This document shows, piece after piece, positions 16,176-45,550 of a stretch of 45,550 bases of DNA. The stretch spans positions 1 to 45,550 of the forward strand of contig JAEOTZ010000065.1 of NCBI GenBank assembly GCA_016839585.1, written 5' to 3'. The stretch comes from Promethearchaeota archaeon. GTDB lineage: Archaea; Asgardarchaeota; Lokiarchaeia; Sigyniarchaeales; SOKP01. The translations under genes were made by a program, and so were the position numbers. Each line of letters opens with the position of its first letter. Within the stretch, counting starts at the first letter, position 1. Below the pieces are notes generated by a model. That model saw nothing but the letters and a program-made list of their open reading frames with translations. It did no database searches and was not told the origin of the DNA.

Positions 16176-17249
16176 TTAACCATGAATATTTTTATCATGT
16201 TTCCACGGTGGATAAATTCTAATATTTTCAGAGTTAGGAAAAATTAATTCTTTAAAGAACATTAATAAACCTTTCCTACTCTTTATAATCATTATATAAA
16301 AATATTTAATAAATTTTATTGGCAAGTGTTTCCAAAATGTCAAAGATCTAGAATAATCAATTGTTCTTAGAATTAATGGCAATAATTTGAGAAATAAGTA
16401 AGGAGATTTATAAAAAGTTATAGCAAGTAATTTGGCTGCACTAACTCTTTCTTGGTTAAGTAATTTTTCTTTCGTCTTAGGGGAATTTCTTAGAAGATCA
16501 TATAATAATTTTCTTTTAAATTGCATTTGAGTAAATCTACTTAATGGAGAAAATGGTGATATACTTATTTTTTTAAATGATTTTATTGTAATGTTTAAAT
16601 CTCTTTCAGCACTAATATCACTTTCGTAATTTTGATAACAAATAATTTTTGGAGTAGTTATTGTTTTTCCTTTTACCATTGCTTGAGTCATTAAGATTTG
16701 ATGCATATATGCACATCCAACATATTTTTTTGCTCTTTTTAAATCAAATACATCTCTTTTTAATATAATACCTGAAAAATAACCATGTTGAAAAAACAAT
16801 CTGCTTAATGATTGATAACCTGGATTTAATATCTGATTTTTACATTGATAATCATATAAAATATCCTTATGTATATTACCTTTAATACCTATTTTACCTA
16901 AAATTTGTGAAAAATCTTCATGATTTTTTATTATTTCTATAATCCAATCAATAACATTCAAATTTATAATATCTTCATCACTAAGCATAAAAACAAATTT
17001 ACCGTTTGCCTTCTCTATAACTTTTATTATATTAAGATCAACACCTAAATTTCTACTGTTTCGAAAATATCTAATTCTTTGATCATCTAATTTATTTATA
17101 AGGGATTCTGTTCCATCAGAAGAAGCATTATCACTAATAACAAATTCAATATCTTTTTCTGGACATTGAAGATTATATCTTAAAGTTTTATATAAAATTT
17201 TTGCTCGATTATAAGTAGGTATGCATATACTAAGCCATTTCTTAGTTAA
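16176..17249 (-). CDS. Glycosyltransferase family 2 (RfbV/WbaV-like); N-terminal domain lacks a canonical start codon
   Basis: The frame is open 87 codons upstream of the track's ATG (16988): LTKKWLSICIPTYNRAKIL...EFVISDNASSDGT...NLGVDLN...FVFMLSDED. It is bounded by an in-frame TGA at 17256-17258 that lies within an AAGGTGA RBS-like site. Confidence 0.85.
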   Translation of the reverse strand, partial: LTKKWLSICIPTYNRAKILYKTLRYNLQCPEKDIEFVISDNASSDGTESLINKLDDQRIRYFRNSRNLGVDLNIIKVIEKANGKFVFMLSDEDIINLNVIDWIIEIIKNHEDFSQILGKIGIKGNIHKDILYDYQCKNQILNPGYQSLSRLFFQHGYFSGIILKRDVFDLKRAKKYVGCAYMHQILMTQAMVKGKTITTPKIICYQNYESDISAERDLNITIKSFKKISISPFSPLSRFTQMQFKRKLLYDLLRNSPKTKEKLLNQERVSAAKLLAITFYKSPYLFLKLLPLILRTIDYSRSLTFWKHLPIKFIKYFYIMIIKSRKGLLMFFKELIFPNSENIRIYPPWKHDKNIHG

Positions 17250-25986: not shown

Positions 25987-26130
25987 TTAATGCTCTTCAA
26001 TTTTTAATGGTTTTTTTAATTTAACAGTAAATTAGAATTTTTTTAATCTTTTTGCAGGTTTATGAAGAAGTAATGTTTTTTAATGCTATGTAATTATATA
26101 TAATTAAACTTAATTAATGATGAGAAGAAA

Positions 26131-26370
26131 ATGCCTAAAGAGGAACATAAAGTAGAATATACTACTGTTTCGATACCTAAACCTCTTGTGGAAAAAATTA
26201 AGGAGCGAATGAAAGGAACTGGTTTTTCATCAGTATCTAGTTATGTTACCTATGTGTTGAGACAAGTTATTTCATCTATAGAGGAAGAAGAACGATCGAA
26301 ACAGGCTTTCACAAAAGAAGAAGAAGAAAAAGTGAAACAAAGATTAAGAGATTTGGGATACATAGATTAA
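26131..26370 (+). CDS. Ribbon-helix-helix (CopG/Arc/MetJ) protein with C-terminal RLRDLGY tail
   Basis: YTTVSIPKPL beta-ribbon followed by helix-G-F-S-S-V-S-helix; acidic linker; ends EEEEKVKQRLRDLGYID. Confidence 0.85.
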   Translation: MPKEEHKVEYTTVSIPKPLVEKIKERMKGTGFSSVSSYVTYVLRQVISSIEEEERSKQAFTKEEEEKVKQRLRDLGYID

Positions 26371-26420
26371 TTATAAAAGATTTTAAAATTATTAAAATTT
26401 AAAAAAGGTTTTGGTATTAA

Positions 26421-27569
26421 ATGATAGAGCCACATGGTGGAACTTTAATAAATAAAGTCTTGCCAAAAATCGAAAAAGAAAGGATAAAGGGAGAAATTAA
26501 CGAATTTGAGAAAATAGAAGTCAGACCAGAGACAATTAAAGTGATTAAGAACATCTGTTTTGGAGCTTTTAGTCCCTTAGAGGGATTCATGAATGAAAAT
26601 GATTATTATTATGTATTAGATACTATGTACTTAGAGAATAATATTGCCTGGCCATTTCCAATCACGTTGGACGTCTCAGAAAAGGAAATTAAAAATATAA
26701 AAGCTGATGATAAATTAATCCTTACAAATAGCAGTGGAACTCCAATAGCACTAATGAATATAGAGACTATCTTTGATTACGAGAAGAAGGAATACGCAGA
26801 AAAAACATATGGTACATTGGATCAGAATCATCCCGGAGTAAGTAGTGTTTTCAATTATAAAGAAAAACTCATTGGGGGAGAGATTTTCTTAATTAACGAA
26901 CCTAAACCAACTTTTTTATATTTAGATTTAAAACCTCTTGAAACGAGAGTTTTATTTAAGGAAAAGGGTTGGGATAGAGTTGTTGCATTTCAAACTAGAA
27001 ATCCTCCTCATTTGGGTCATGAATACGTTCAGAAAGCAGGATTAACTTATGTAGATGGTCTATTTATAAATCCTGTGATTGGAAAAAAGAAAGTAGGCGA
27101 TTTCTTAGATGAAGTAATAATTGAGGCATATAAAGCACTTATAAAAGAATATTATCCTAAAGACAGAGTTGTGTTAAGCACATTTGAAACAGAAATGAGA
27201 TATGCTGGACCTAAAGAAGCCATTTTTCATGCCATAGCAAGAAAAAATTTTGGATGTGACCATATTATTATTGGTCGAGATCATGCTGGAGTTGATAATT
27301 ATTATGGTCCTTATGATGCTCACAAGATCTTTAATGAGTTTCCAGATTTGGGTATTGAACCAATTAAATTTAGATCTTTTTCGAAATGTGCTAAATGTGA
27401 TGCTGTTATTAATGATAAGATTTGCCCACATCCTCCTGAAATGCAAAGATATTTCGCAGGAACAGAGATTAGAACTGCATTGCAGGCTGGAAAGCCACCT
27501 AGCGCTGAGATTATGCGTCCAGAAGTCGCTGAAGTAATTCTTAGATATAAAAATCCCTTTTTAGTATAA
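26421..27569 (+). CDS. sat: Sulfate adenylyltransferase (ATP sulfurylase)
   Basis: PHGG.L, FSPLEGFM, QTRNPPHLGH, YAGPKEA and GRDHAGV motifs; CxxC...CPH zinc site. Confidence 0.98.
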   Translation: MIEPHGGTLINKVLPKIEKERIKGEINEFEKIEVRPETIKVIKNICFGAFSPLEGFMNENDYYYVLDTMYLENNIAWPFPITLDVSEKEIKNIKADDKLILTNSSGTPIALMNIETIFDYEKKEYAEKTYGTLDQNHPGVSSVFNYKEKLIGGEIFLINEPKPTFLYLDLKPLETRVLFKEKGWDRVVAFQTRNPPHLGHEYVQKAGLTYVDGLFINPVIGKKKVGDFLDEVIIEAYKALIKEYYPKDRVVLSTFETEMRYAGPKEAIFHAIARKNFGCDHIIIGRDHAGVDNYYGPYDAHKIFNEFPDLGIEPIKFRSFSKCAKCDAVINDKICPHPPEMQRYFAGTEIRTALQAGKPPSAEIMRPEVAEVILRYKNPFLV

Positions 27570-27619
27570 AAAATTTATAAAAATTGAATTTCATTAAAAA
27601 ATAGATAAAGATTCAAATT

Positions 27620-29008
27620 ATGGGCAGAAATAAGAAAAAGTTAGTCATTATCGGTTTGGATTGTGCTACTCCGAGGACTTTCTTTCAAGATTTTAAAGAT
27701 GATTGCCCCAATATAAAAAAGTTAATGGATTCAGGAGTCTACGGAAAACTTAGGTCTTGCGATCCTCCAATTACAATACCAGCCTGGATGGTAATGTCAA
27801 CTGGAAAAAAAGCAGGTACTTTAGGATTATATGGTTTTAGACATAGAAAAGAAAATTTATATGATGATTTTTGGATAGCAACCTCCTATAATATAAAAGA
27901 ACCAAAAGTTTGGGAAATAATTGGAGATAAAGGATTAAAATCTTGTGTTTTAGGATTGCCACCAACATATCCAGTTCAAAAAATTAATGGATGCTTAGTT
28001 TCTGGTTTTATGACTCCTGATAGTACCACAGAATTCACCTATCCAGCTGAGCTTAAAGAAGAAATTATAGATAAAGTAGGAGATTATATTTTTGATGTTA
28101 ATTTTAGAGTAAATAATAAAGAGGATTTGATAAAAGAAATTTATGCTTTAACAGAGATTCATTTTAAAACTGTAAAATTTTTAATGCAAAATAAAGATTG
28201 GGACTACTTTAAATTTGTAATAATTGGTTTAGACAGATTCCATCATGCATTTTGGAAATATTATGATAAAGGACATCAAAAATATAAGCCTAACAATAAA
28301 TTCGAAGGGGAAATGAGAAAGTATTATAGTTATTTAGATAAAAAAGTTGGAGAAATTTTAGATTTATTAGATAACGATACTGTTGTTATGATTGTATCTG
28401 ATCATGGTGCAAAAGCAATGAAAGGTTTAATTTGTATAAACATGGTACTTGAAGAGTTGGGTTTATTGAAATTTAATACAAAACCAAAACCTAGAACAAG
28501 AATCAGAGATGCAGATATAGATTGGAATAACACATATGCTTGGGGTTGGGGTGGATATAACGCCCGAGTATTTTTAAATTTAGAAGGAAGAGAACCAAAT
28601 GGTATTATCAAAAAAGCAGATTATGAAAAAATACGTGATAAGATTGTAATCATGTTAAAAAAGATTAAAGATGTCAATGGGAATCCTATGAATACTAAGG
28701 TTTACAAACCCGAAGAATTATTTGAAATTATACGGGGAGATGCTCCTGATTTAATGGTCTATTTCGACGATTTGAATTGGAGATCTGCTGGAACAGTTGG
28801 GTATGATTCCATCTATTTGGATGAAAATGACACAGGTCCTGATGATGCCGTTCATGATTGGTATGGGGTATATATCATTTATGATCCAAAGAAGAAAATA
28901 GGTAAGGATTTAGGAGTAAAAAATATTCTTGATATAGCACCCACATCTCTTAATATTTTGGGAATAGATGTCCCCTCTGATATGGAAGGAAATATAATAA
29001 ATTTCTAA
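27620..29008 (+). CDS. Alkaline-phosphatase-superfamily protein (NPP/phosphodiesterase-like, COG3379-type)
   Basis: IGLDCA, PPITIPAW..M.TG (Thr at the nucleophile position), DRFHH.FW, VSDHG and DIAPT motifs; no signal peptide; no CxPxR sulfatase motif. Confidence 0.88.
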   Translation: MGRNKKKLVIIGLDCATPRTFFQDFKDDCPNIKKLMDSGVYGKLRSCDPPITIPAWMVMSTGKKAGTLGLYGFRHRKENLYDDFWIATSYNIKEPKVWEIIGDKGLKSCVLGLPPTYPVQKINGCLVSGFMTPDSTTEFTYPAELKEEIIDKVGDYIFDVNFRVNNKEDLIKEIYALTEIHFKTVKFLMQNKDWDYFKFVIIGLDRFHHAFWKYYDKGHQKYKPNNKFEGEMRKYYSYLDKKVGEILDLLDNDTVVMIVSDHGAKAMKGLICINMVLEELGLLKFNTKPKPRTRIRDADIDWNNTYAWGWGGYNARVFLNLEGREPNGIIKKADYEKIRDKIVIMLKKIKDVNGNPMNTKVYKPEELFEIIRGDAPDLMVYFDDLNWRSAGTVGYDSIYLDENDTGPDDAVHDWYGVYIIYDPKKKIGKDLGVKNILDIAPTSLNILGIDVPSDMEGNIINF

Positions 29009-29023
29009 AAGAGGAACAAAAGA

Positions 29024-29557
29024 ATGGAACATAAAGGATTTACATTATGGTTTACCGGACTCCCATGTTCCGGAAAAACTGTTCTTGCTAACGCTATAGC
29101 AGATGAATTAAGAAAAAAAGGAATGAAAGTAGAACGACTTGATGGTGATATAGTTAGAAAGAATTTAACAAGAGATTTGGGATTTTCTGAGGAAGACCGA
29201 AATATGAATATTGAGAGAGTAACATTTGTTGCTAAATTATTAACTCGTAATGGGGTTGCTGTACTCGCGTCATTCGTATCACCATACAATAAGATTAGAG
29301 CGTATTCACGAAAGGAAATTGGAGAGTATATTCTCGTCTATGTAAAATGCTCTCTTGAGGAATGTGAAAAAAGGGATATAAAAGGGATGTATTCAAAAGC
29401 TAGAGCTGGAGAAATAAAAGCTTTCACTGGTATTGATCATCCTTTCGAAGAACCTGATACAGCTGATATAGTGGTTGAAACAGATAAACAAACAGTTGAA
29501 GAAAGTAAGCAAATTATTTTAAAAGCTTTAGATAAAATGGGATATTTGCCAAATTAA
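29024..29557 (+). CDS. cysC: Adenylyl-sulfate (APS) kinase
   Basis: WFTGLPCSGKT, LDGD.VR, DLGFS.EDR, RD.KGMY.KARAGEI and FTGID.PFE.P motifs. Confidence 0.98.
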   Translation: MEHKGFTLWFTGLPCSGKTVLANAIADELRKKGMKVERLDGDIVRKNLTRDLGFSEEDRNMNIERVTFVAKLLTRNGVAVLASFVSPYNKIRAYSRKEIGEYILVYVKCSLEECEKRDIKGMYSKARAGEIKAFTGIDHPFEEPDTADIVVETDKQTVEESKQIILKALDKMGYLPN

Positions 29558-37347: not shown

Positions 37348-38907
37348 TTAAAATCTTCTGGATAATATTAAAAATATTATACCTACCGCTGCTAATGCTC
37401 CGCCACTGACTCCTAAACCAATAAGTATAGCCATACCAAGGTCATATGGTTCCATAGGTAAATCTTTATCATCTTTTGCTAGTTTATTAACAATATCATC
37501 TCTAAACTTTGGTAGCCAATCAAGAATTTGTTCCATTTGAACATCAGTGAGTACACCATTATATAATTTTAAAGCTACATAAGCAGTACTATTAAAGGGT
37601 TTTGCGCTATACCATTTATTTATTCCACTAACTGTAACAAGTGAATATTCACTTGCCTCATTCCAGAGTGCCATAGTTTGTGTAAGTGTTAAACCTGTTG
37701 CACCTTCTGTTAATCCTACTTCAAAATAGGGTGGTCCATAAATAGGAGGATCCCTCCTGCTTAAAAATCCCTCTGGTAAAATAGATTCACCAAAGATTGT
37801 ACCATTTGCCCATTGTTCATACAAAGCAAATAGTGCAAGTGTTGGTATTGTATAACCTGTTTCAGCTAAAATTAATACTGGTGTAAGATTATTAATAAAG
37901 TTGCCTAACCAACCAAGAACCAGAAGATATTGAGGAGTACTAATACTAAAAGCTATCTCTATCATAGTTTGATATGAGGTATTAAGCCATGCCATTATTC
38001 CTGAATCATTAACAAATGATAAGGGATTTGAATCATCCCAGAGATTCATACAAGTAGACATTGTAAGGTTAGTTGGTATTGGAATACCCGCTTCCAAACC
38101 TGTGGTACCGGGTGGTACTCCAGACTTGAAAAGACTCAAATCAATTGGATCCACAAATTGTGAACCATTTGCCCATTGAGCATAAAATATCATCTCAGCA
38201 AATTCCTCAATTGTAAATCCCCATCCCGAATATGAAGCCTTAACTACAACTTCCCATAAATAGTTATTAATATATCCCGCGAGAGCTTCTAGTTGACTCC
38301 ATGTGGCATTATAATAAAATTGCATTGTAGAATTTAATAGCATATCACCTAATGACGCATTAAGGTAAAGTTCCATATATCCTAAAACGCCTGTTCCTAA
38401 CTCGAGATCGGTTATTAATCCTGGTAAAGATCCATTCCCGTATAGTAAAGAATCTTGAGCATTTGTTGTATAACCAAGATTAGTAATATTTAAATCAAAA
38501 GCTAATAGAGTATCATAATAATCTGATACACCTTGGGGGGTACCATAATCTGCTTGAAAGGTTGGACTATTAAAAAATTGATCTTTAGCAGCGTCTATAC
38601 CAATGAAAAAAGCAACCCCATCTATTGTCTGGTTAATTGCTCTAGCCGCTCCTGAACCATTGATTATTAAAGGTAATTGAGCTATTGCCTCCTCCTTTAG
38701 ACCATTTAAAACGTCAGGAGTAGCTAAACCGGGTAATTGTCCTTCTAAACTTTCAATCGCATCGTCTTTAATTTTTAAAAGCGCTTCAGGTACTCCTTCA
38801 TAGACTTGATCGACAAAATATTGGTTTATAATAAATCCGGTTGGTACTAAACCAGCACCAACAGCTAACAAAACTAATCCAACTATTAATTTAGATTTGC
38901 CATACAT
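37348..38907 (-). CDS. Hypothetical two-TM membrane protein with a large extracellular loop containing an internal tandem repeat
   Basis: Hydrophobic segments at both termini and many NxS/T sequons. YxQWANG and LWx5SL/Fx4GIxxW each occur twice; the QWANG copies are 121 codons apart. Confidence 0.85.
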   Translation of the reverse strand: MYGKSKLIVGLVLLAVGAGLVPTGFIINQYFVDQVYEGVPEALLKIKDDAIESLEGQLPGLATPDVLNGLKEEAIAQLPLIINGSGAARAINQTIDGVAFFIGIDAAKDQFFNSPTFQADYGTPQGVSDYYDTLLAFDLNITNLGYTTNAQDSLLYGNGSLPGLITDLELGTGVLGYMELYLNASLGDMLLNSTMQFYYNATWSQLEALAGYINNYLWEVVVKASYSGWGFTIEEFAEMIFYAQWANGSQFVDPIDLSLFKSGVPPGTTGLEAGIPIPTNLTMSTCMNLWDDSNPLSFVNDSGIMAWLNTSYQTMIEIAFSISTPQYLLVLGWLGNFINNLTPVLILAETGYTIPTLALFALYEQWANGTIFGESILPEGFLSRRDPPIYGPPYFEVGLTEGATGLTLTQTMALWNEASEYSLVTVSGINKWYSAKPFNSTAYVALKLYNGVLTDVQMEQILDWLPKFRDDIVNKLAKDDKDLPMEPYDLGMAILIGLGVSGGALAAVGIIFLILSRRF

Positions 38908-39110: not shown

Positions 39111-42100
39111 CTATATTTTTTTTAAATTAAATGTTATTGAATTAATGGTATCTTCTTTGATAGCAGAATTACAATATGGACAATTTAAGGCAACTTTTTT
39201 CTTTAATTTAGAGATTATCTTATCTTTCAATGAAGCAGAGCATTCTTTATTAGGACATATATTTAGTTTTGCGAATACTTTGCCATTCTCTTGTGTTAAA
39301 TCATCCAAAAGTATTTCAAGCTTTTTTGCACTTACTTTATCTGATATTAATTCTTTATTTTTTTCAAGATATTTGTTTAAGTATTCAGTTTTAGTACCAA
39401 TTGTTAATGTTATTTCTTCTCCTACTTTAAAATTATTTTTTTTCCGAGAGAATTGAATATTTCTTAATAAATCATTGATTATTCGTTCAGATAAGAGATC
39501 ATCATCAACTGAAACATCTAGATAAACATTACAGAATTTTGATTCAGCTTTAATTAAATTATCTGATTGTTTAACCGATTTCACTATTTCTAATTCTTTA
39601 ACATTTCCAACTTTTTTAATTATCTCTGGAAATTCTATTTTTGGCATGTCTTCTTTAGGTTCGATTATTATTCTTTTATTTGGCCATCTTAATCTTATTC
39701 TATTTTCATCCTTTATCGCCCTGACAATTTCTATTAATTCCCGCGTAAAATGCATTTGTTCCTCTAATTTTAAATCTATTTTTTTCTCATTATATTCAGG
39801 CCAATCTTGTAAATGAATACTTTTTGTATCTTCTAAGCCACTTGATTTTAAGTGTGGTTTATACATTTTAAGAAATAAATCTTCACTTATCATCGGATTA
39901 ACCGGTGCTAATAACAGTAAAACATTATATAAAACACGATAGAGAACAGCCATTATCAAAAGTTTATTAGGATCTTCAGAATATATATCAATTTTTTCCC
40001 GATTTAGCATTATATACCATCTACTTATATCATTTACAATTAAGTCTCTTAATTCACCCGTAATCCATGGTAACTCATAATTATCCGCTAATTCAGTAAT
40101 TTTTTTAATCGTGGAATGTAATCTTGAAAGTATCCATTTATCTAATTTACTAAGAGATTTTTCATCTAATTTTATCTTAGAAGGGTCAAATCCAGCCAAA
40201 TTGAACTTTTCGTTAGCGTATACAAAAACATTCCATATTGTATTTATTATTTTGTAAGTATCAGCATATTCCTTCACTACAAAATTGAAATCCCTACCTG
40301 GTTGTGTTACACCTATGGAATAAAAGCGAAAAGTTTCAATTCCTTTTATATTTGAATAAGATTTATTTTTTTTAAGTTTCTCTAAAGTACCATCAATAAG
40401 ATGTTCAGGATAAATTTGAGTACCTTTTGATTTACTCATTTTTAATTTCTCTCTTAAAGTCCATCCATGCATATAACAAACATTATAATTTTTACGATGA
40501 GATGAAACCATTGCGCTACATAATAGAGTATTAAACCATCCTCTTATCTGATCTTTACCTTCAATTATAAAATCGGCAGGAACCCATGTATCAAAATGAC
40601 TATGTCCATCATAAACTTCATGAGCAGCCCACATTACTGACCCCGAATCTAACCAAACATCTAGAATGTCAGGAATTCTCTTTTTAGTACCTTTATTACA
40701 TTTTATACATTTCCAAGTGACTTTATCAATCCATGGACGATGGAGATCTTCGGGACATTCTCCTGCTATTTCTTTTAATTCTTTCGCTGAGCCTATTACT
40801 GTCATGTCCTTGCATTCTTCATTATCACATATCCATACGCTTAAAGGTATACCCCAAAAACGTTGTCTTGAAATACACCAATCTTTTAATGTAGATAACC
40901 AACTTTTAAACCATTTATTACCTGCCCAATCTGGAACCCAGTAAACCTCACTATTTTTTTTTAGCAACTCAGGTACAAGACTTTCTGTTTTAAAAAACCA
41001 TTGATTTGTCGCTCTATATACTAATTTTGAATCACAACGCCAACAATGAGCATATTCGTGTTCTATTTCGTCAGTTAATATTAATGTACCTTTTTCTTTC
41101 AACAAATCTAAAATTTCTTTATTTGAATCAAATACAAATTTCCCTTCAAACTTTCCTGCTTCTTTCGTATATTCACCCCTTATGTCTACAGGTGTAAAAA
41201 CAGGAATATTATTCGCAACACCTACTTCAAAATCTTCAGGACCATGACCAGGAGCAGAATGAACTAACCCAACACCTTCTGAAACTGAAACATATTCCTC
41301 AGACAATATAATCGAATGAACTGTATCGCTTTCCTTTGCTAATTCTTTTTGATACGGTACTTCATCTAATAATGGATGAATGTATTTCATTCCCTCTAAA
41401 TCCTCACCTTTAAAATCTTCTGCAATCTTATATTTATATCCTAATTCTCCCGAAATTAGATGTGTTATTGATACTTTTGAAAGTATCCAATATTCATCGA
41501 GATCTTCAATATATACTTTAGCATAAGCAGCAAAGGGATTTGCCATAATAGCCTCATTAGCTACTAATGTCCAAGGTGTTGTGGTCCAAATTATAAAATA
41601 AGTCTTTTCCATATCAACAGATTTTATCTTTAAAAACAAACTTATATCTTGAATGTTCTTATATTCATGCTCATGCTTAGCTAAAGCAGTAGCACATCTT
41701 GGGCAGCAATTTAATGGCCTATAAAATTGGTAAAGTAGATTATTCTCCCAGGCCTTCTTTAAAGTCCACCAAACACCTTCAATATAACTATTTTTATAAG
41801 TAATATATGGATTATCCCAATCCCAAAAGTAGCATCCTAATCGTTTAAATTGTTCATTCATTATTTTAAGATTTTTTTGGGCATACTCCTTACAACCCTT
41901 TATAAATTTATCTACACCATAATCAAGAATTTCTTGTTTATTTTTAATTCCTAATTCTTTTTCCATCTGAACTTCAATTGGCAATCCATGAGTATCATAA
42001 CCAGGAGTATCTGTAACTTTAAAACCTCTCATTCGCTTATACTTTATTAAAAAGTCTTTTAAAACTTTATTCCACACAGTTCCAAGGTGAATTAAGCCTG

Positions 42101-42257
42101 TAGTATATGGAGGACCATCAATAAATCGCCAAACTTCCTTTCCTTCCTCTTTTTTTCTTATTTCGGAGTATATATTTTCTTTCTCCCAAAAGTCAATTAC
42201 ATTTTCTTCTAACTTCAGTAAATCTAATTTCTTATCTAATATTTCCACGAAAATCAT
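39111..42257 (-). CDS. ileS: Isoleucine--tRNA ligase (archaeal/eukaryote-like type)
   Basis: DGPPY..G.IHLG, GYDTHGLPIE, WTTTPWTL, DWCISRQRFWG.P, EGKDQ.RGWF and KMSKS motifs. Confidence 0.99.
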   Translation of the reverse strand: MIFVEILDKKLDLLKLEENVIDFWEKENIYSEIRKKEEGKEVWRFIDGPPYTTGLIHLGTVWNKVLKDFLIKYKRMRGFKVTDTPGYDTHGLPIEVQMEKELGIKNKQEILDYGVDKFIKGCKEYAQKNLKIMNEQFKRLGCYFWDWDNPYITYKNSYIEGVWWTLKKAWENNLLYQFYRPLNCCPRCATALAKHEHEYKNIQDISLFLKIKSVDMEKTYFIIWTTTPWTLVANEAIMANPFAAYAKVYIEDLDEYWILSKVSITHLISGELGYKYKIAEDFKGEDLEGMKYIHPLLDEVPYQKELAKESDTVHSIILSEEYVSVSEGVGLVHSAPGHGPEDFEVGVANNIPVFTPVDIRGEYTKEAGKFEGKFVFDSNKEILDLLKEKGTLILTDEIEHEYAHCWRCDSKLVYRATNQWFFKTESLVPELLKKNSEVYWVPDWAGNKWFKSWLSTLKDWCISRQRFWGIPLSVWICDNEECKDMTVIGSAKELKEIAGECPEDLHRPWIDKVTWKCIKCNKGTKKRIPDILDVWLDSGSVMWAAHEVYDGHSHFDTWVPADFIIEGKDQIRGWFNTLLCSAMVSSHRKNYNVCYMHGWTLREKLKMSKSKGTQIYPEHLIDGTLEKLKKNKSYSNIKGIETFRFYSIGVTQPGRDFNFVVKEYADTYKIINTIWNVFVYANEKFNLAGFDPSKIKLDEKSLSKLDKWILSRLHSTIKKITELADNYELPWITGELRDLIVNDISRWYIMLNREKIDIYSEDPNKLLIMAVLYRVLYNVLLLLAPVNPMISEDLFLKMYKPHLKSSGLEDTKSIHLQDWPEYNEKKIDLKLEEQMHFTRELIEIVRAIKDENRIRLRWPNKRIIIEPKEDMPKIEFPEIIKKVGNVKELEIVKSVKQSDNLIKAESKFCNVYLDVSVDDDLLSERIINDLLRNIQFSRKKNNFKVGEEITLTIGTKTEYLNKYLEKNKELISDKVSAKKLEILLDDLTQENGKVFAKLNICPNKECSASLKDKIISKLKKKVALNCPYCNSAIKEDTINSITFNLKKI

Positions 42258-42714: not shown

Positions 42715-45550
42715 TTGAGAAACAAAATAAACATTTTTAGGAATTTTATTGTAGTTGCTTTTGTTGCTAGTTTTATAATTGCCTATTTTCTTTTTTTAAT
42801 AAATTTATATATTATTCCTAATAATTATGAACTCCCAATTGTATCATTAATAGGTTTTGCTATAATTATCATCGGGATTTTTTACTTTTTCATTAATTTA
42901 AGTCATGGTAATGAGAGTAATGAAACGTTATTTAATTTCAAAATTTTAAACGAAAATTCTATCAAAATTATTTTAATGAGCCTTATGGTAATTACTTTTT
43001 TTATTCCTCCAATCTCTTTTTCTGATGCAATGATAAATTGGGAACATATTGGATTTTTCAATCTCTTTAGAGCTATCATTTTCCTTATTGGATGCGCATT
43101 TCTACCAGGGGTATGCATTTTTAAAATATTACTTCCAAAGAGTACACTCTATGAGAAATTCAACGTGGAACCTTTTTTACTAAAAATAACTATTTATCCT
43201 CTTTTATCCTTTACATTTTTAGGATGTTATACTTTTATCCTCGATCAAATTGGATTGCTTAGAGAATTTTTTGCGATTGTTTTGTTTATAACAATTATAC
43301 TTTTATTTGTTTTTGATTTCTTGATTCAGAAAATCCGAGATAATAATGAAATAAAATTAAATACAATAGAGATAAAAATATCAAAATACACATCTCTAAT
43401 TTTATTTTTAGCATTAGGGATAATAATAATTGCTCTAGGGATTTTTTTTACCTCAGAATATGGTATGCCAGGTGATTCTTGGAGAGGGATTGAATATGCT
43501 TATTATATTGGCCGCCAAAAAACTATCTATTTGGCTAAATTTTATGGTTCTTATACGGTATATTGGGGTTATATCTCATTTAGTTTAAGTACATTATGCG
43601 GAATACCTTATTTTAATGTTTATGCAATATTATTTCTCTTTTTGTATTTAATTATAACTTCAATATATTTGTTAATGAAGGCTCTATTGCATAGGTTTAA
43701 AGAGATTTATGCTGTATTATCTACCATCTTCATTATAACATTTTCTAATTTATTTTATATAGTTAATTCATCCTTAGGTGGTGTAGGAGCGACATTCGTA
43801 GGAGCAGGGATTTTTTCTTTTTATTTTCGAAGTTATGCCTTTTTTCCGTTATTTTTATCAATAGCTTTATTTATTATCATAGCTAAAACTTCAAATGTAT
43901 CAGAAACTAAACCAATTTTTAAAACTGAGAGATTTATAATTACTTTTTTTGCTGCATTGTTTTTATTACAAAGTTATATGACTTATTTTCTTCCAACTAT
44001 CGCAGGAATATCTCTAACTTTTATATATTGTATATTTTCAAATAAAAAAAGCCAAGATTTAAAATTATTTTTGAATTTTTTATTATTTTTTATCTTATTA
44101 TTTATATCTTTTGATGTGTTATCAGGATTCTTTTTTAGTTGGAAATCCTCTACTTTTTTAACTTACTTTTTAGGAATCTCTCCACCTCTTCTTAGAGAGG
44201 TTTTAATATTAAATGCTATATTAATTTATTTATTTTTAATTGGATTTTTCCTCCTTAGTTTTCTTATTTATAAAATTTATATTAAGTTTTTTTCTAGAGA
44301 TAGAAAAAGAGATTTGAAATTTAAGATTAGTTCAAAATCCATCTTTAAATTTATTTTATTCATTTTTACTGAGTTTTTGATAATTGAAATATTACATATT
44401 ATCGTAATAAAAATAATGGAACCTTTTTTGATAATTAACAAAAATTTCTTTACATTTTACTTAGATCTTATATTTGCAAATATAGGATTAATTGGTATTT
44501 TAGGAATCTATTTATCTTATTTTTGTTTTAAAAAAAATAGACAGCTATTTTATGTTTTATTTTCTTGGTTTCTTTTTACAATAGGTTTAGCTTCGATTTT
44601 AATATTTAGAAGATGGTTACAATATCCATTTACTACAGTTTCAGAGATACCATCTAATGAATCATTCTATATGATGTATTGGTATACTCGAAATTGGTAC
44701 TATTTAATCATTCCTCTTTCTATTTTTTCTTCAATAGGAATAATAAAATTAATAAAAAGTATTAAATCAAAAATACTTATAAAAGACCTTAATAAAACTA
44801 AGAAGTTAATTCCTTATTTAATTCTTATATCTTCTTTAATCTTCTTATCCTTTTCAAATACACTAATTGCCGGATTGAAAATATATAATCGTGGCATCTA
44901 TGACCGTGATTTTCACGTTAAAGATGAAGAAGCTCAAATGTTCGGTTGGGTTACAGAAAATATTCCCCGTGATTCTAAAATATTGATTGATAGATATCAA
45001 ATGTATCATTTGCGTGATATGGGACCATTCAATATATGTTTTATTGAGTTGGAAATCAAAGAAGCGTGTGATAATTTTTATTATGGATGTCAATATGGCT
45101 GGGAAATTACTTATGAATTTGATTCGGACTGCAGCGTTGATTTTATAGAAGAATTAGATAGTCATGAAAGTATTTTAAATTTTAAAGACCAAAATTATAA
45201 TGGTTCAGCATCTATTGTAATCAAATTCAATTCTGCTCAAGAATATGGATCTATTGAATTTTTTATAAGAACTACAAATAAATCAAAACTTTTTGAGATA
45301 GATTTTTCTTCTTCTGAAAATACTACAGGGATTTCATTTTCAATAAATTCTGATGCATTTTGTTATTATAATGGAAGTAGTTTTAATAAAATTCTTGATA
45401 TAGAAAATGACGTATGGTATCCGTTAAAATTTGATTTTGAATGTACAGATGGAAATTATACGGGATTAAGTCAATATAATTGGAAAATAACTATTAATGG
45501 GACTGATTATGGAGAATTTAAATTCTTAAATAATTTAAGTCAAGTAGAAA
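42715..45550 (+). CDS. Large polytopic membrane protein (GT-C-like) with a C-terminal extracellular beta-sandwich domain; truncated by the window end
   Basis: Not in the ORF track because it has no stop in the window. The frame is open from TTG 42715 for at least 945 codons: MRNKINIFRNFIVV..., many TM helices, PGDSW in an early loop, EEAQMFGWVTENIPRDSKIL after the last TM, then GSIEFFIRTT...WYPLKFDFECTDGNYTGLSQYNW. Confidence 0.85.
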   Translation, partial: MRNKINIFRNFIVVAFVASFIIAYFLFLINLYIIPNNYELPIVSLIGFAIIIIGIFYFFINLSHGNESNETLFNFKILNENSIKIILMSLMVITFFIPPISFSDAMINWEHIGFFNLFRAIIFLIGCAFLPGVCIFKILLPKSTLYEKFNVEPFLLKITIYPLLSFTFLGCYTFILDQIGLLREFFAIVLFITIILLFVFDFLIQKIRDNNEIKLNTIEIKISKYTSLILFLALGIIIIALGIFFTSEYGMPGDSWRGIEYAYYIGRQKTIYLAKFYGSYTVYWGYISFSLSTLCGIPYFNVYAILFLFLYLIITSIYLLMKALLHRFKEIYAVLSTIFIITFSNLFYIVNSSLGGVGATFVGAGIFSFYFRSYAFFPLFLSIALFIIIAKTSNVSETKPIFKTERFIITFFAALFLLQSYMTYFLPTIAGISLTFIYCIFSNKKSQDLKLFLNFLLFFILLFISFDVLSGFFFSWKSSTFLTYFLGISPPLLREVLILNAILIYLFLIGFFLLSFLIYKIYIKFFSRDRKRDLKFKISSKSIFKFILFIFTEFLIIEILHIIVIKIMEPFLIINKNFFTFYLDLIFANIGLIGILGIYLSYFCFKKNRQLFYVLFSWFLFTIGLASILIFRRWLQYPFTTVSEIPSNESFYMMYWYTRNWYYLIIPLSIFSSIGIIKLIKSIKSKILIKDLNKTKKLIPYLILISSLIFLSFSNTLIAGLKIYNRGIYDRDFHVKDEEAQMFGWVTENIPRDSKILIDRYQMYHLRDMGPFNICFIELEIKEACDNFYYGCQYGWEITYEFDSDCSVDFIEELDSHESILNFKDQNYNGSASIVIKFNSAQEYGSIEFFIRTTNKSKLFEIDFSSSENTTGISFSINSDAFCYYNGSSFNKILDIENDVWYPLKFDFECTDGNYTGLSQYNWKITINGTDYGEFKFLNNLSQVE

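Follow-up and report, generated by a model that had tools for sequence, protein, structure and literature searches.

The archaeal genome studied here (Promethearchaeota archaeon, assembly GCA_016839585.1) carries a four-gene cassette for making 3′-phosphoadenosine 5′-phosphosulfate (PAPS) within a 45,550-nucleotide stretch of contig JAEOTZ010000065.1 that we call the window. The cassette encodes a small ribbon-helix-helix (RHH)-like protein, the ATP sulfurylase Sat, a protein of the alkaline phosphatase superfamily (AlkP), and the adenosine 5′-phosphosulfate (APS) kinase CysC. We propose, with a probability of roughly 0.7, that AlkP is the dedicated pyrophosphatase of the cassette and that its removal of inorganic pyrophosphate (PPi) pulls the Sat reaction forward. 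This role is the most likely one because AlkP is orthologous to TON_1705 of Thermococcus onnurineus, is broadly linked to sat and cysC, and occurs in natural fusions. The cassette consists of the following genes:

26131..26370, + strand: RHH-like protein, 79 aa; copG-like first gene of the operon
26421..27569, + strand: Sat (ATP sulfurylase), 382 aa; sulfate + ATP -> APS + PPi
27620..29008, + strand: AlkP, 462 aa; metalloenzyme of the nucleotide pyrophosphatase/phosphodiesterase (NPP) family (PF01663, COG3379-like), cytoplasmic, with Thr52 as nucleophile
29024..29557, + strand: CysC (APS kinase), 177 aa; APS + ATP -> PAPS + ADP

Cassette architecture

The genes are separated by 50, 50, and 15 nt, in the order RHH, Sat, AlkP, CysC, and stand inside a glycan locus. 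An earlier note on this DNA, made from the sequence alone, had described four co-oriented, tightly spaced genes in such a setting, and we recovered them at exactly the positions listed above. The surrounding locus contains GT1, GT2, and GT4 glycosyltransferases, a flippase, FkbM methyltransferases, sugar-nucleotide epimerases, a UDP-GlcNAc 2-epimerase, and a heparinase II/III-like gene; heptose and pentose-phosphate genes follow the glycan genes. Sat matched PF01747 (E = 2e-84) and PUA_2 (E = 8e-47) in Pfam and scored 481 bits against NCBIfam NF003166 (cut-off 387). CysC matched PF01583 (E = 9e-60, Pfam) and scored 229.8 bits against TIGR00455 (cut-off 138.7).

This arrangement is far from chance, because it is kept in three of three distant Asgard contigs and in the majority of 80 loci spread over many phyla. 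The three Asgard contigs retain all four genes while their flanking genes differ, with identities to the window proteins of 86–94% for the small protein, 76–84% for Sat, 68–74% for AlkP, and 81–85% for CysC.

AlkP is the orthologue of TON_1705

AlkP (PF01663 Phosphodiest, E = 8e-43, Pfam) aligned over its full length with ACJ17195.1 of T. onnurineus NA1 (UniProt B6YUW7; 49% identity over 453 aa, E = 4e-161) and over its whole length with PYCH_17550 of Pyrococcus yayanosii (49% identity, E = 8e-168). The gene for ACJ17195.1 is placed between those for a DHH-type phosphatase of 3′-phosphoadenosine 5′-phosphate (PAP or pAp; the enzyme is abbreviated PAPase or pApase) and for APS kinase, which identifies it as TON_1705, and the window AlkP is its orthologue. 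The two Thermococcales proteins share with AlkP the Pfam family, length, catalytic residues, and position between sat and cysC, as well as a copG-like first gene of the operon. The metal ligands of AlkP (D14, D205, H209, D261, H262, and H412) and its nucleophile, Thr52 in the motif PPITIPAW, are invariant or nearly so and align with those of TON_1705 and PYCH_17550; the nucleophile is invariant among close relatives.

A passage of PMC4463584 that cites Lee et al. 2009 (J Bacteriol 191:3415) assigns TON_1704 as APS kinase, TON_1705 as pyrophosphatase, TON_1706 as PAP phosphatase, and TON_1707 as ATP sulfurylase, and Table 1 of PMC9653972 lists a Km of 18.8 µM and a kcat of 2.1 s−1 for TON_1705 on PPi. 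According to Jin et al. 2021 (PMC8268124), the cluster of P. yayanosii comprises copG, ATP sulfurylase, a pApase of the DHH type, a “type I phosphodiesterase/nucleotide pyrophosphatase,” and APS kinase; these authors proposed that the NPP gene product degrades PPi. The same paper reports that the DHH enzyme TON_1706 degrades pAp and PAPS, and it places the copG-ATPS-DHH-NPP-APSK cluster also in Ferroglobus, Aciduliprofundum, Aeropyrum, and Ignicoccus (PMC8268124). The PAPS cluster was, then, already described in 2009 and 2021, in Euryarchaeota and Crenarchaeota, and the Asgard cassette is a new member. Its gene order, Sat (with or without the DHH pApase), AlkP, CysC, with the copG-like gene first, is common to the window, T. 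onnurineus, P. yayanosii, and most of the 80 loci. The Thermococcales cassette differs from the Asgard one in having the DHH pApase and a following TauE gene, whereas glycan genes adjoin the cassette in all three organisms. In T. onnurineus, the cassette is followed by TauE, a flippase, a canonical sulfotransferase, and sugar-nucleotide genes; in P. yayanosii, it is followed by TauE, a flippase, a GT2 gene, and an aminotransferase.

The sulfate-activation system of Methanothermococcus thermolithotrophicus (PMC10322725) resembles the Asgard cassette in having stand-alone ATP sulfurylase and APS kinase on one locus, and its DHH PAPase (8A8K) is orthologous to the DHH gene in Archaeoglobi-type cassettes. 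Its authors stress fast PPi removal, which was rate-limiting for the ATP sulfurylase/APS kinase pair in vitro (PMC10322725). They propose an ordinary pyrophosphatase encoded elsewhere (WP_018154121) and leave a gene of the alkaline-phosphatase/phosphodiesterase type unmentioned. In M. thermolithotrophicus the pathway continues to PAPS reductase and an F420-dependent sulfite reductase (PMC10322725), whereas the window genome has no sulfite reductase.

Linkage and natural fusions

AlkP relatives are 68–96% identical across Loki-, Thor-, Odin-, Hermod-, and Hodarchaeota and ∼50% identical across domains. A profile-guided scan of reference genomes returned the 80 AlkP loci, archaeal and bacterial, which span Asgard archaea, Bathyarchaeia, Archaeoglobi, Hadarchaeota, Thermoplasmatota, Nitrososphaerota, Aminicenantes, Chloroflexota, Thermodesulfobacteriota, Omnitrophota, and others. 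Sat neighbors AlkP in 62 of the 80, CysC in 63, and the RHH gene in 49; several of the loci lacking such a neighbor are contigs that end early. The co-occurrence with sat and cysC for which the earlier note had proposed to survey gene neighborhoods is very broad. In nine loci (Archaeoglobi, Hadarchaeota, and others), AlkP is separated from Sat or RHH by an additional DHH gene, which matches the solved PAP phosphatase 8A8K with E = 6e-94, and an NAD-dependent sugar epimerase/dehydratase follows CysC in 25 bacterial loci. Glycan genes border the cassette in Asgard, Thermococcales, and bacterial loci alike.

Searching 1.8 billion cluster representatives, we found natural fusions of Sat to AlkP (P0132), of CysC to AlkP (P0137), of AlkP to a pyruvate kinase barrel and Sat (P0155), and of AlkP to a pyruvate kinase barrel. 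Linkage and fusions together therefore place AlkP on the PAPS-synthesis side of the pathway. In vitro assays of ATP sulfurylase and APS kinase add helpers for PPi removal and ATP regeneration as separate enzymes (PMC10322725, methods); the AlkP-pyruvate kinase barrel-Sat fusion unites the two. Its pyruvate kinase domain could serve ATP regeneration or something else. Some algae have APS kinase-ATP sulfurylase-pyrophosphatase fusions whose pyrophosphatase domain comes from a different, unrelated family. They share with the Sat-AlkP, CysC-AlkP, and AlkP-pyruvate kinase-Sat fusions the logic of tying a pyrophosphatase to Sat or CysC, and AlkP would be analogous to the algal domain, not homologous.

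Some loci showed further features. The 1151-aa fusion P0155 (L106:5001-8456, + strand) is part of a glycan locus in which the gene directly downstream encodes a PHP-family phosphoesterase and a PQ-loop protein is encoded upstream; no APS kinase was found in 13 kb of sequence there. The CysC-AlkP fusion P0137 (L107:7344-10337, − strand) adjoins a 997-aa FGE-sulfatase-domain protein in two independent assemblies. Two other Asgard genomes have isoleucyl-tRNA synthetase (IleRS)-like genes flanking the cassette (L001:1546-4725 and L003:3100-6285). The window's own IleRS-like gene (39111-42257, − strand) is only ∼32% identical to them in a global alignment, whereas the cassette proteins are 68–92% identical. 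This contrast reflects either differing IleRS types or horizontal movement of the cassette.

Fold of AlkP and the proposed pathway

The AlphaFold2 (AF2) model of AlkP (pLDDT 96.2) has as its closest folds in the Protein Data Bank (PDB) ENPP1, ENPP3, and the Xanthomonas (Xac) NPP (Foldseek E 3e-19 to 3e-17); a sequence search of the PDB with AlkP returned nothing significant. The core fold is the same as in ENPP1, ENPP3, and Xanthomonas NPP 2GSN (TM 0.67–0.70, normalized by the bacterial NPP), and AlkP shares the Thr nucleophile and the two-metal ligand set with NPPs, at an identity of only 12–16%. It differs from them in being cytoplasmic and ∼80 residues longer than the bacterial NPP, the extra region lowering the TM normalized by the query to ∼0.57. 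Moreover, the substrate tabulated for TON_1705, PPi, is the product and not the usual substrate of NPPs.

Two other activities could be set aside. The Thr nucleophile and the missing CxPxR motif and signal peptide, all pointed out in the earlier note, are confirmed (Thr52; no CxPxR; an N terminus that is not hydrophobic), and the Thr in PPITIPAW in place of CxPxR rules out a formylglycine sulfatase; the match to Sulfatase (PF00884) fell below the cut-off. AlkP is also ruled out as the PAP phosphatase. It is in neither the DHH/NrnA nor the CysQ/HAL2 family, the DHH gene beside it in nine loci is a separate 8A8K orthologue, and the window genome has a separate HAL2/CysQ-like candidate.

In the pathway that we propose, Sat would make APS and PPi, and AlkP, as an NPP-fold, two-metal enzyme with a Thr nucleophile, would hydrolyze the PPi that otherwise drives the very unfavorable Sat reaction backward. 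CysC would phosphorylate APS to PAPS, to be used by sulfotransferases encoded elsewhere on surface glycans or other acceptors; here, the user would be the canonical sulfotransferase of a second glycan locus. The separate HAL2/CysQ-like phosphatase would clear PAP, and the small RHH protein would act as a copG-like operon regulator. Orthology, gene linkage, fusions, conserved catalytic residues, and a lack of assimilation genes are direct observations behind this scheme. PPi hydrolysis is taken over from the literature on the orthologue, and the coupling of AlkP to Sat in vivo is inferred.

A conserved tail predicted to dock in the AlkP active site

[quoted passage not shown] In the window protein, an acidic linker joins a ribbon-helix-helix-like part to a C-terminal tail that is invariant (...EEEEKVKQRLRDLGYID). 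This acidic-RLxxLGY tail is its most conserved part, with L72, L75, G76, and Y77 invariant in 27 archaeal and bacterial sequences. The tail also moves between genes: of the 80 loci, 48 have it on RHH, ∼9 that have no RHH gene have it on an extended CysC, and one has it on the AlkP ORF, with no strong tail found on any cassette gene in 22. Tail-bearing CysCs have 196–204 aa compared with the usual ∼175 (L055, L065, L066, L071, L077, L087, L053, and L054; e.g., ...EEEEQILEDRLKALGYL), and the AlkP-borne tail is at L072. An LGY-like C terminus occurs in 39 of 63 cassette CysCs, and the window CysC ends in a weaker version of the tail (...LKALDKMGYLPN). Within Asgard archaea, 40 of 42 AlkP-positive genomes have the RHH gene, the AlkP genes of the remaining two lying at contig ends; the RHH gene also stands beside a divergent AlkP at G084:C279, in a genome without a CysC match.

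The predicted AlkP-RHH complex had an ipSAE of 0.85, compared with 0.21 for the best control. That level was attained by 58 of 80 solved complexes and by 2 of 110 mismatched pairs, counts that are rough because our own alignments were used. The runs had 94% or more of their contacts in common, with a partner pLDDT of 73 or higher. In the predicted interface, RHH residues 57–79 enter the AlkP catalytic cleft with Y77 against T52, and tail residues 72–78 contact AlkP G72, F73, R74, N403, D404, and D408. The model suggests that the acidic-RLxxLGY tail probably docks on AlkP, tying regulation or assembly to the enzyme. If the docking is real, the tail would be a docking or pseudo-substrate element that links the regulator or CysC to AlkP. 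Both the mobility of the tail among RHH, CysC, and AlkP and its predicted docking in the cleft are new here.

A tentative extension of this idea, which we regard as possible, is that a portable docking peptide puts its Tyr by the Thr nucleophile and makes the pyrophosphatase a hub, or “trigger enzyme,” coupling PPi and sulfate-activation flux to operon transcription and CysC recruitment. In a bolder version, the tail Tyr itself would be a covalent acceptor. In trigger enzymes of the PutA type, an RHH DNA-binding domain is covalently fused to the enzyme; here, RHH is a separate 79-aa protein, whose behavior could likewise vary with the state of an active site, and the putative coupling would run through the predicted docked tail.

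One might go further and suppose that the docked tail is a substrate of AlkP or its main control, with AlkP handling a sulfo, phospho, or AMP group on the invariant Tyr or serving as a sensor that releases the RHH regulator. The complex score, the contact of Y77 with T52, and the invariance of G76 and Y77 speak for such a role, as do the spread of the tail over three cassette proteins, the near-constant presence of the RHH gene, and its occurrence at G084:C279 in a genome without a CysC match. We nevertheless consider it quite unlikely. The docking is a prediction, and conserved active-site clefts attract peptides in models; more than a quarter of the loci (22 of 80) carry no strong tail; and these proteins are not known to carry a modified Tyr. 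The pyrophosphatase activity of the orthologue, as tabulated, was measured without the partner (PMC9653972).

Several points weigh against a dedicated pyrophosphatase. The activity of TON_1705 is taken from two secondary sources (the passage in PMC4463584 and the table in PMC9653972), and its kcat lies ∼500-fold under those of the family-I pyrophosphatases of the same table (PMC9653972), so that hydrolysis of PPi could be secondary to another activity. An ordinary family-I pyrophosphatase, Ton1914, is present in T. onnurineus as well (listed in PMC9653972), and AlkP is therefore not simply filling a gap. Furthermore, the nearest solved folds of AlkP are nucleotide pyrophosphatases, and the predicted docking sets the aromatic Y77 by the nucleophile, hinting that the pocket accepts more than PPi.

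Much of this would also fit an NPP-type hydrolase of APS, PAPS, or ATP that sets or buffers the APS/PAPS pool and cleaves PPi on the side. ENPP enzymes, to which the model is structurally closest together with the Xac NPP, hydrolyze PAPS, APS, and ATP. The predicted docking sets Tyr77 by Thr52, Phe73, and Arg74, presumably at a position like that at which NPPs bind the nucleotide base. The low tabulated kcat on PPi points the same way, and AlkP is retained next to CysC in Archaeoglobi loci where Sat is not a neighbor, and next to Sat where CysC is not. However, hydrolysis of APS or PAPS inside the operon that makes them would be futile, all the more so in a fusion to Sat or CysC; the Km for PPi given in Table 1 of PMC9653972 is in the physiological range; and degradation of pAp and PAPS falls to the DHH enzyme TON_1706 (PMC8268124). 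We consider a nucleotide hydrolase of this kind unlikely and prefer the dedicated pyrophosphatase.

Use of PAPS in the window genome

Family searches of Pfam and NCBIfam with window ORFs of at least 100 aa matched no PAPS reductase, sulfite reductase, or sulfotransferase family, in agreement with the earlier note. A 270-aa ORF (16176-16988, − strand) was considered as a hidden sulfotransferase and rejected: it matched no Pfam or NCBIfam family and weakly resembles a GT2 glycosyltransferase instead (Atlas feature search score 0.94, with few shared features). When screened for the same purpose, the 519-aa ORF at 37348-38907 matched no Pfam or NCBIfam family, and the 945-aa ORF at 42715-45549 had no Pfam match.

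In the whole genome (G000), which is 99% complete, the sulfite reductase family NIR_SIR was not found; it was matched in none of 121 sampled Asgard genomes, compared with 11 of 14 control genomes. The only PAPS_reduct-like gene fell below the CysH cut-offs. It encodes a 457-aa protein with an Fe-S-like C-terminal part (G000:C7; L017:7437-8810, + strand), and its neighbors, an AAA ATPase, a C5 DNA methylase, and an HhH-GPD gene, form a context that looks like DNA modification or defense, not sulfate assimilation. The missing NIR_SIR and this sub-cut-off gene in its DNA-modification-like context rule out assimilatory use of PAPS in the window genome. The overall interpretation in the earlier note consequently divides in two. 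Its view that PAPS serves sulfation and not assimilation is upheld by the lack of NIR_SIR, the location of the PAPS_reduct-like gene elsewhere, and the glycan borders, and PAPS here probably does serve sulfation; its view of AlkP as a PAPS-using sulfo-transfer or PAPS/PAP-turnover enzyme gives way to the orthology with TON_1705 and to separate PAP phosphatases, of the DHH type elsewhere and HAL2/CysQ-like here.

On contig C47, a second glycan locus holds a canonical Sulfotransfer_3/_1 gene (403 aa); the locus also encodes a polysaccharide deacetylase, a UDP-galactopyranose mutase, a GT2 glycosyltransferase, and a hexapeptide acyltransferase. The earlier note had itself counted a canonical sulfotransferase elsewhere as telling against its reading of AlkP. 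We infer glycan sulfation as the end use of PAPS. The candidate PAP phosphatase, so assigned from sequence, is a 304-aa protein of the Inositol_P family (G000:C62; L008:1492-2406, − strand), which scored best against a HAL2-type 3′(2′),5′-bisphosphate nucleotidase model (E = 3e-40, below the cut-off), with the CysQ and IMPase/FBPase models lower. In tblastn searches of the genome, neither a DHH-type PAPase nor TauE was found. A membrane H+-pyrophosphatase is present, and soluble pyrophosphatases of family I and of the DHHA2 type were not found in the genome, which speaks for the pyrophosphatase role of AlkP.

Two further proteins of ∼507 aa (C41:32087-33613, − strand; C30:39721-41244, − strand) match PF01663 and have the sulfatase motif CMPNR and no obvious signal peptide. 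Judged by these features, both resemble cytoplasmic sulfatases of the Cys type; the genome that encodes them also makes PAPS.

PAPS users in other Asgard genomes

Of the 121 Asgard genomes, 42 had an AlkP match, ∼36 of them at 45% identity or more, and nearly all of those ∼36 had a CysC match beside AlkP on the same contig. Sulfotransfer_3 occurred in 43 of the 121, with an overlap with the cassette of only ∼13–15 genomes, and had no match in ∼21 of the ∼36 genomes with an AlkP orthologue. Four cassette-bearing genomes (G038, closed and 100% complete; G040, of the window's genus; G007; and G047) had no match to Sulfotransfer_1, _2, or _3, the control for _2 being silent. A search with PF03567 matched nothing anywhere, controls included, and is uninformative; a literature search on Asgard sulfotransferases found no relevant paper. 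The Asgard family f5 has up to nine Sulfotransfer_3 matches per genome (nine in G026) and no AlkP orthologue, and sulfation therefore does not require AlkP. In f5 and f14 genomes (e.g., G026, G074, G015, and G036), an APS kinase domain lies inside ORFs of 576–586 aa that are possibly bifunctional Sat-CysC proteins. This looks like a second, AlkP-free PAPS route within Asgard archaea.

The genomes with a cassette and no recognizable sulfotransferase bear on whether AlkP could itself be a noncanonical PAPS-dependent sulfotransferase, acting via a sulfo-Thr52 intermediate onto a glycan. Such an enzyme would supply the PAPS consumer that is not recognized where sulfite reductase is also missing, it would suit the position of the cassette in or beside glycan loci in many lineages, and GT2, NTP-transferase, and methyltransferase domains occur as fusion partners of relatives in the wider family. 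However, the orthologue is, in the sources cited above, a characterized pyrophosphatase; none of the Sulfotransfer families is among the Pfam matches of AlkP, whose confident model is of the NPP/AlkP fold; and canonical sulfotransferases are at hand, in a glycan locus of the window genome and a few genes from the cassette in T. onnurineus. The fusion partners of AlkP (Sat, CysC, and pyruvate kinase) belong to the synthesis side and not to acceptor handling, and f5 has many sulfotransferases in genomes without AlkP. An identity of ∼50% between bacteria and archaea, whatever the glycan neighbors, also sits poorly with an acceptor-specific transferase; conservation across such different glycan contexts is more easily reconciled with a small, universal substrate than with an acceptor that varies. 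We judge a sulfotransferase role for AlkP very improbable, the many cassette-bearing Asgard genomes without a recognizable sulfotransferase leaving it small residual room.

A different lead comes from long-form sisters of AlkP. The G038 cassette is flanked by two 525-aa PF01663 paralogues (L103:14204-15781 and L103:16194-17780, both − strand), and in P. yayanosii, a long-form paralogue (L098:10386-12023, − strand) occupies the slot of the T. onnurineus sulfotransferase. These proteins have 525–545 aa, a T-x-P-A-W nucleophile motif, a ∼50-aa insert, and a C-terminal tail. One lies within 6 kb in 8 of 89 loci, and long forms are present in six of six genomes of family f19 and in 7 of 10 RHH-positive genomes without a cassette AlkP; none was found in f20, G040, or G007. 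A distribution this lineage-specific rules them out as a general substitute for sulfotransferases. Where they stand beside a cassette and no sulfotransferase is recognizable (G038 and P. yayanosii), they are candidates for the missing PAPS user, a lead that concerns a different protein from the cassette AlkP.

Upstream region of the cassette

One further feature lies upstream of the RHH gene:

26091..26106, no strand: perfect 16-bp palindrome TAATTATATATAATTA, ∼25 nt upstream of the RHH start

The palindrome is a weak candidate for an operator or promoter core, and a similar TAATTATA..AATTA core appears in the aligned upstream regions of 12 Asgard loci. The window holds one perfect copy; with at most two mismatches allowed, it has three matches, compared with 1.28 expected; 10 of 100 shuffles reached three, and the palindrome is not significant at ∼27% GC. 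A scan for sigma-70 promoters and terminators showed no enrichment, the bacterial-type model not being meaningful for an archaeon.

Significance

The headline of the earlier note, which cast AlkP as a novel kind of sulfotransferase with a bearing on the origin of glycan sulfation as in eukaryotes, fails, the gene being the Asgard copy of the Thermococcus pyrophosphatase. What takes its place is a PAPS module found in about a third of the sampled Asgard genomes and spread far more widely than the literature states, through many bacterial phyla and with Sat, CysC, and pyruvate kinase as fusion partners. The predicted docking of the tail in the active site suggests a simple way to couple the state of an enzyme to gene control. 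Many cassette-bearing Asgard genomes have no recognizable PAPS consumer. Given the module and the lack of sulfite reductase in 121 genomes, Asgard archaea appear to make PAPS for sulfation only, often beside glycan genes, and sulfated surface glycans in these organisms are a concrete, testable prediction.

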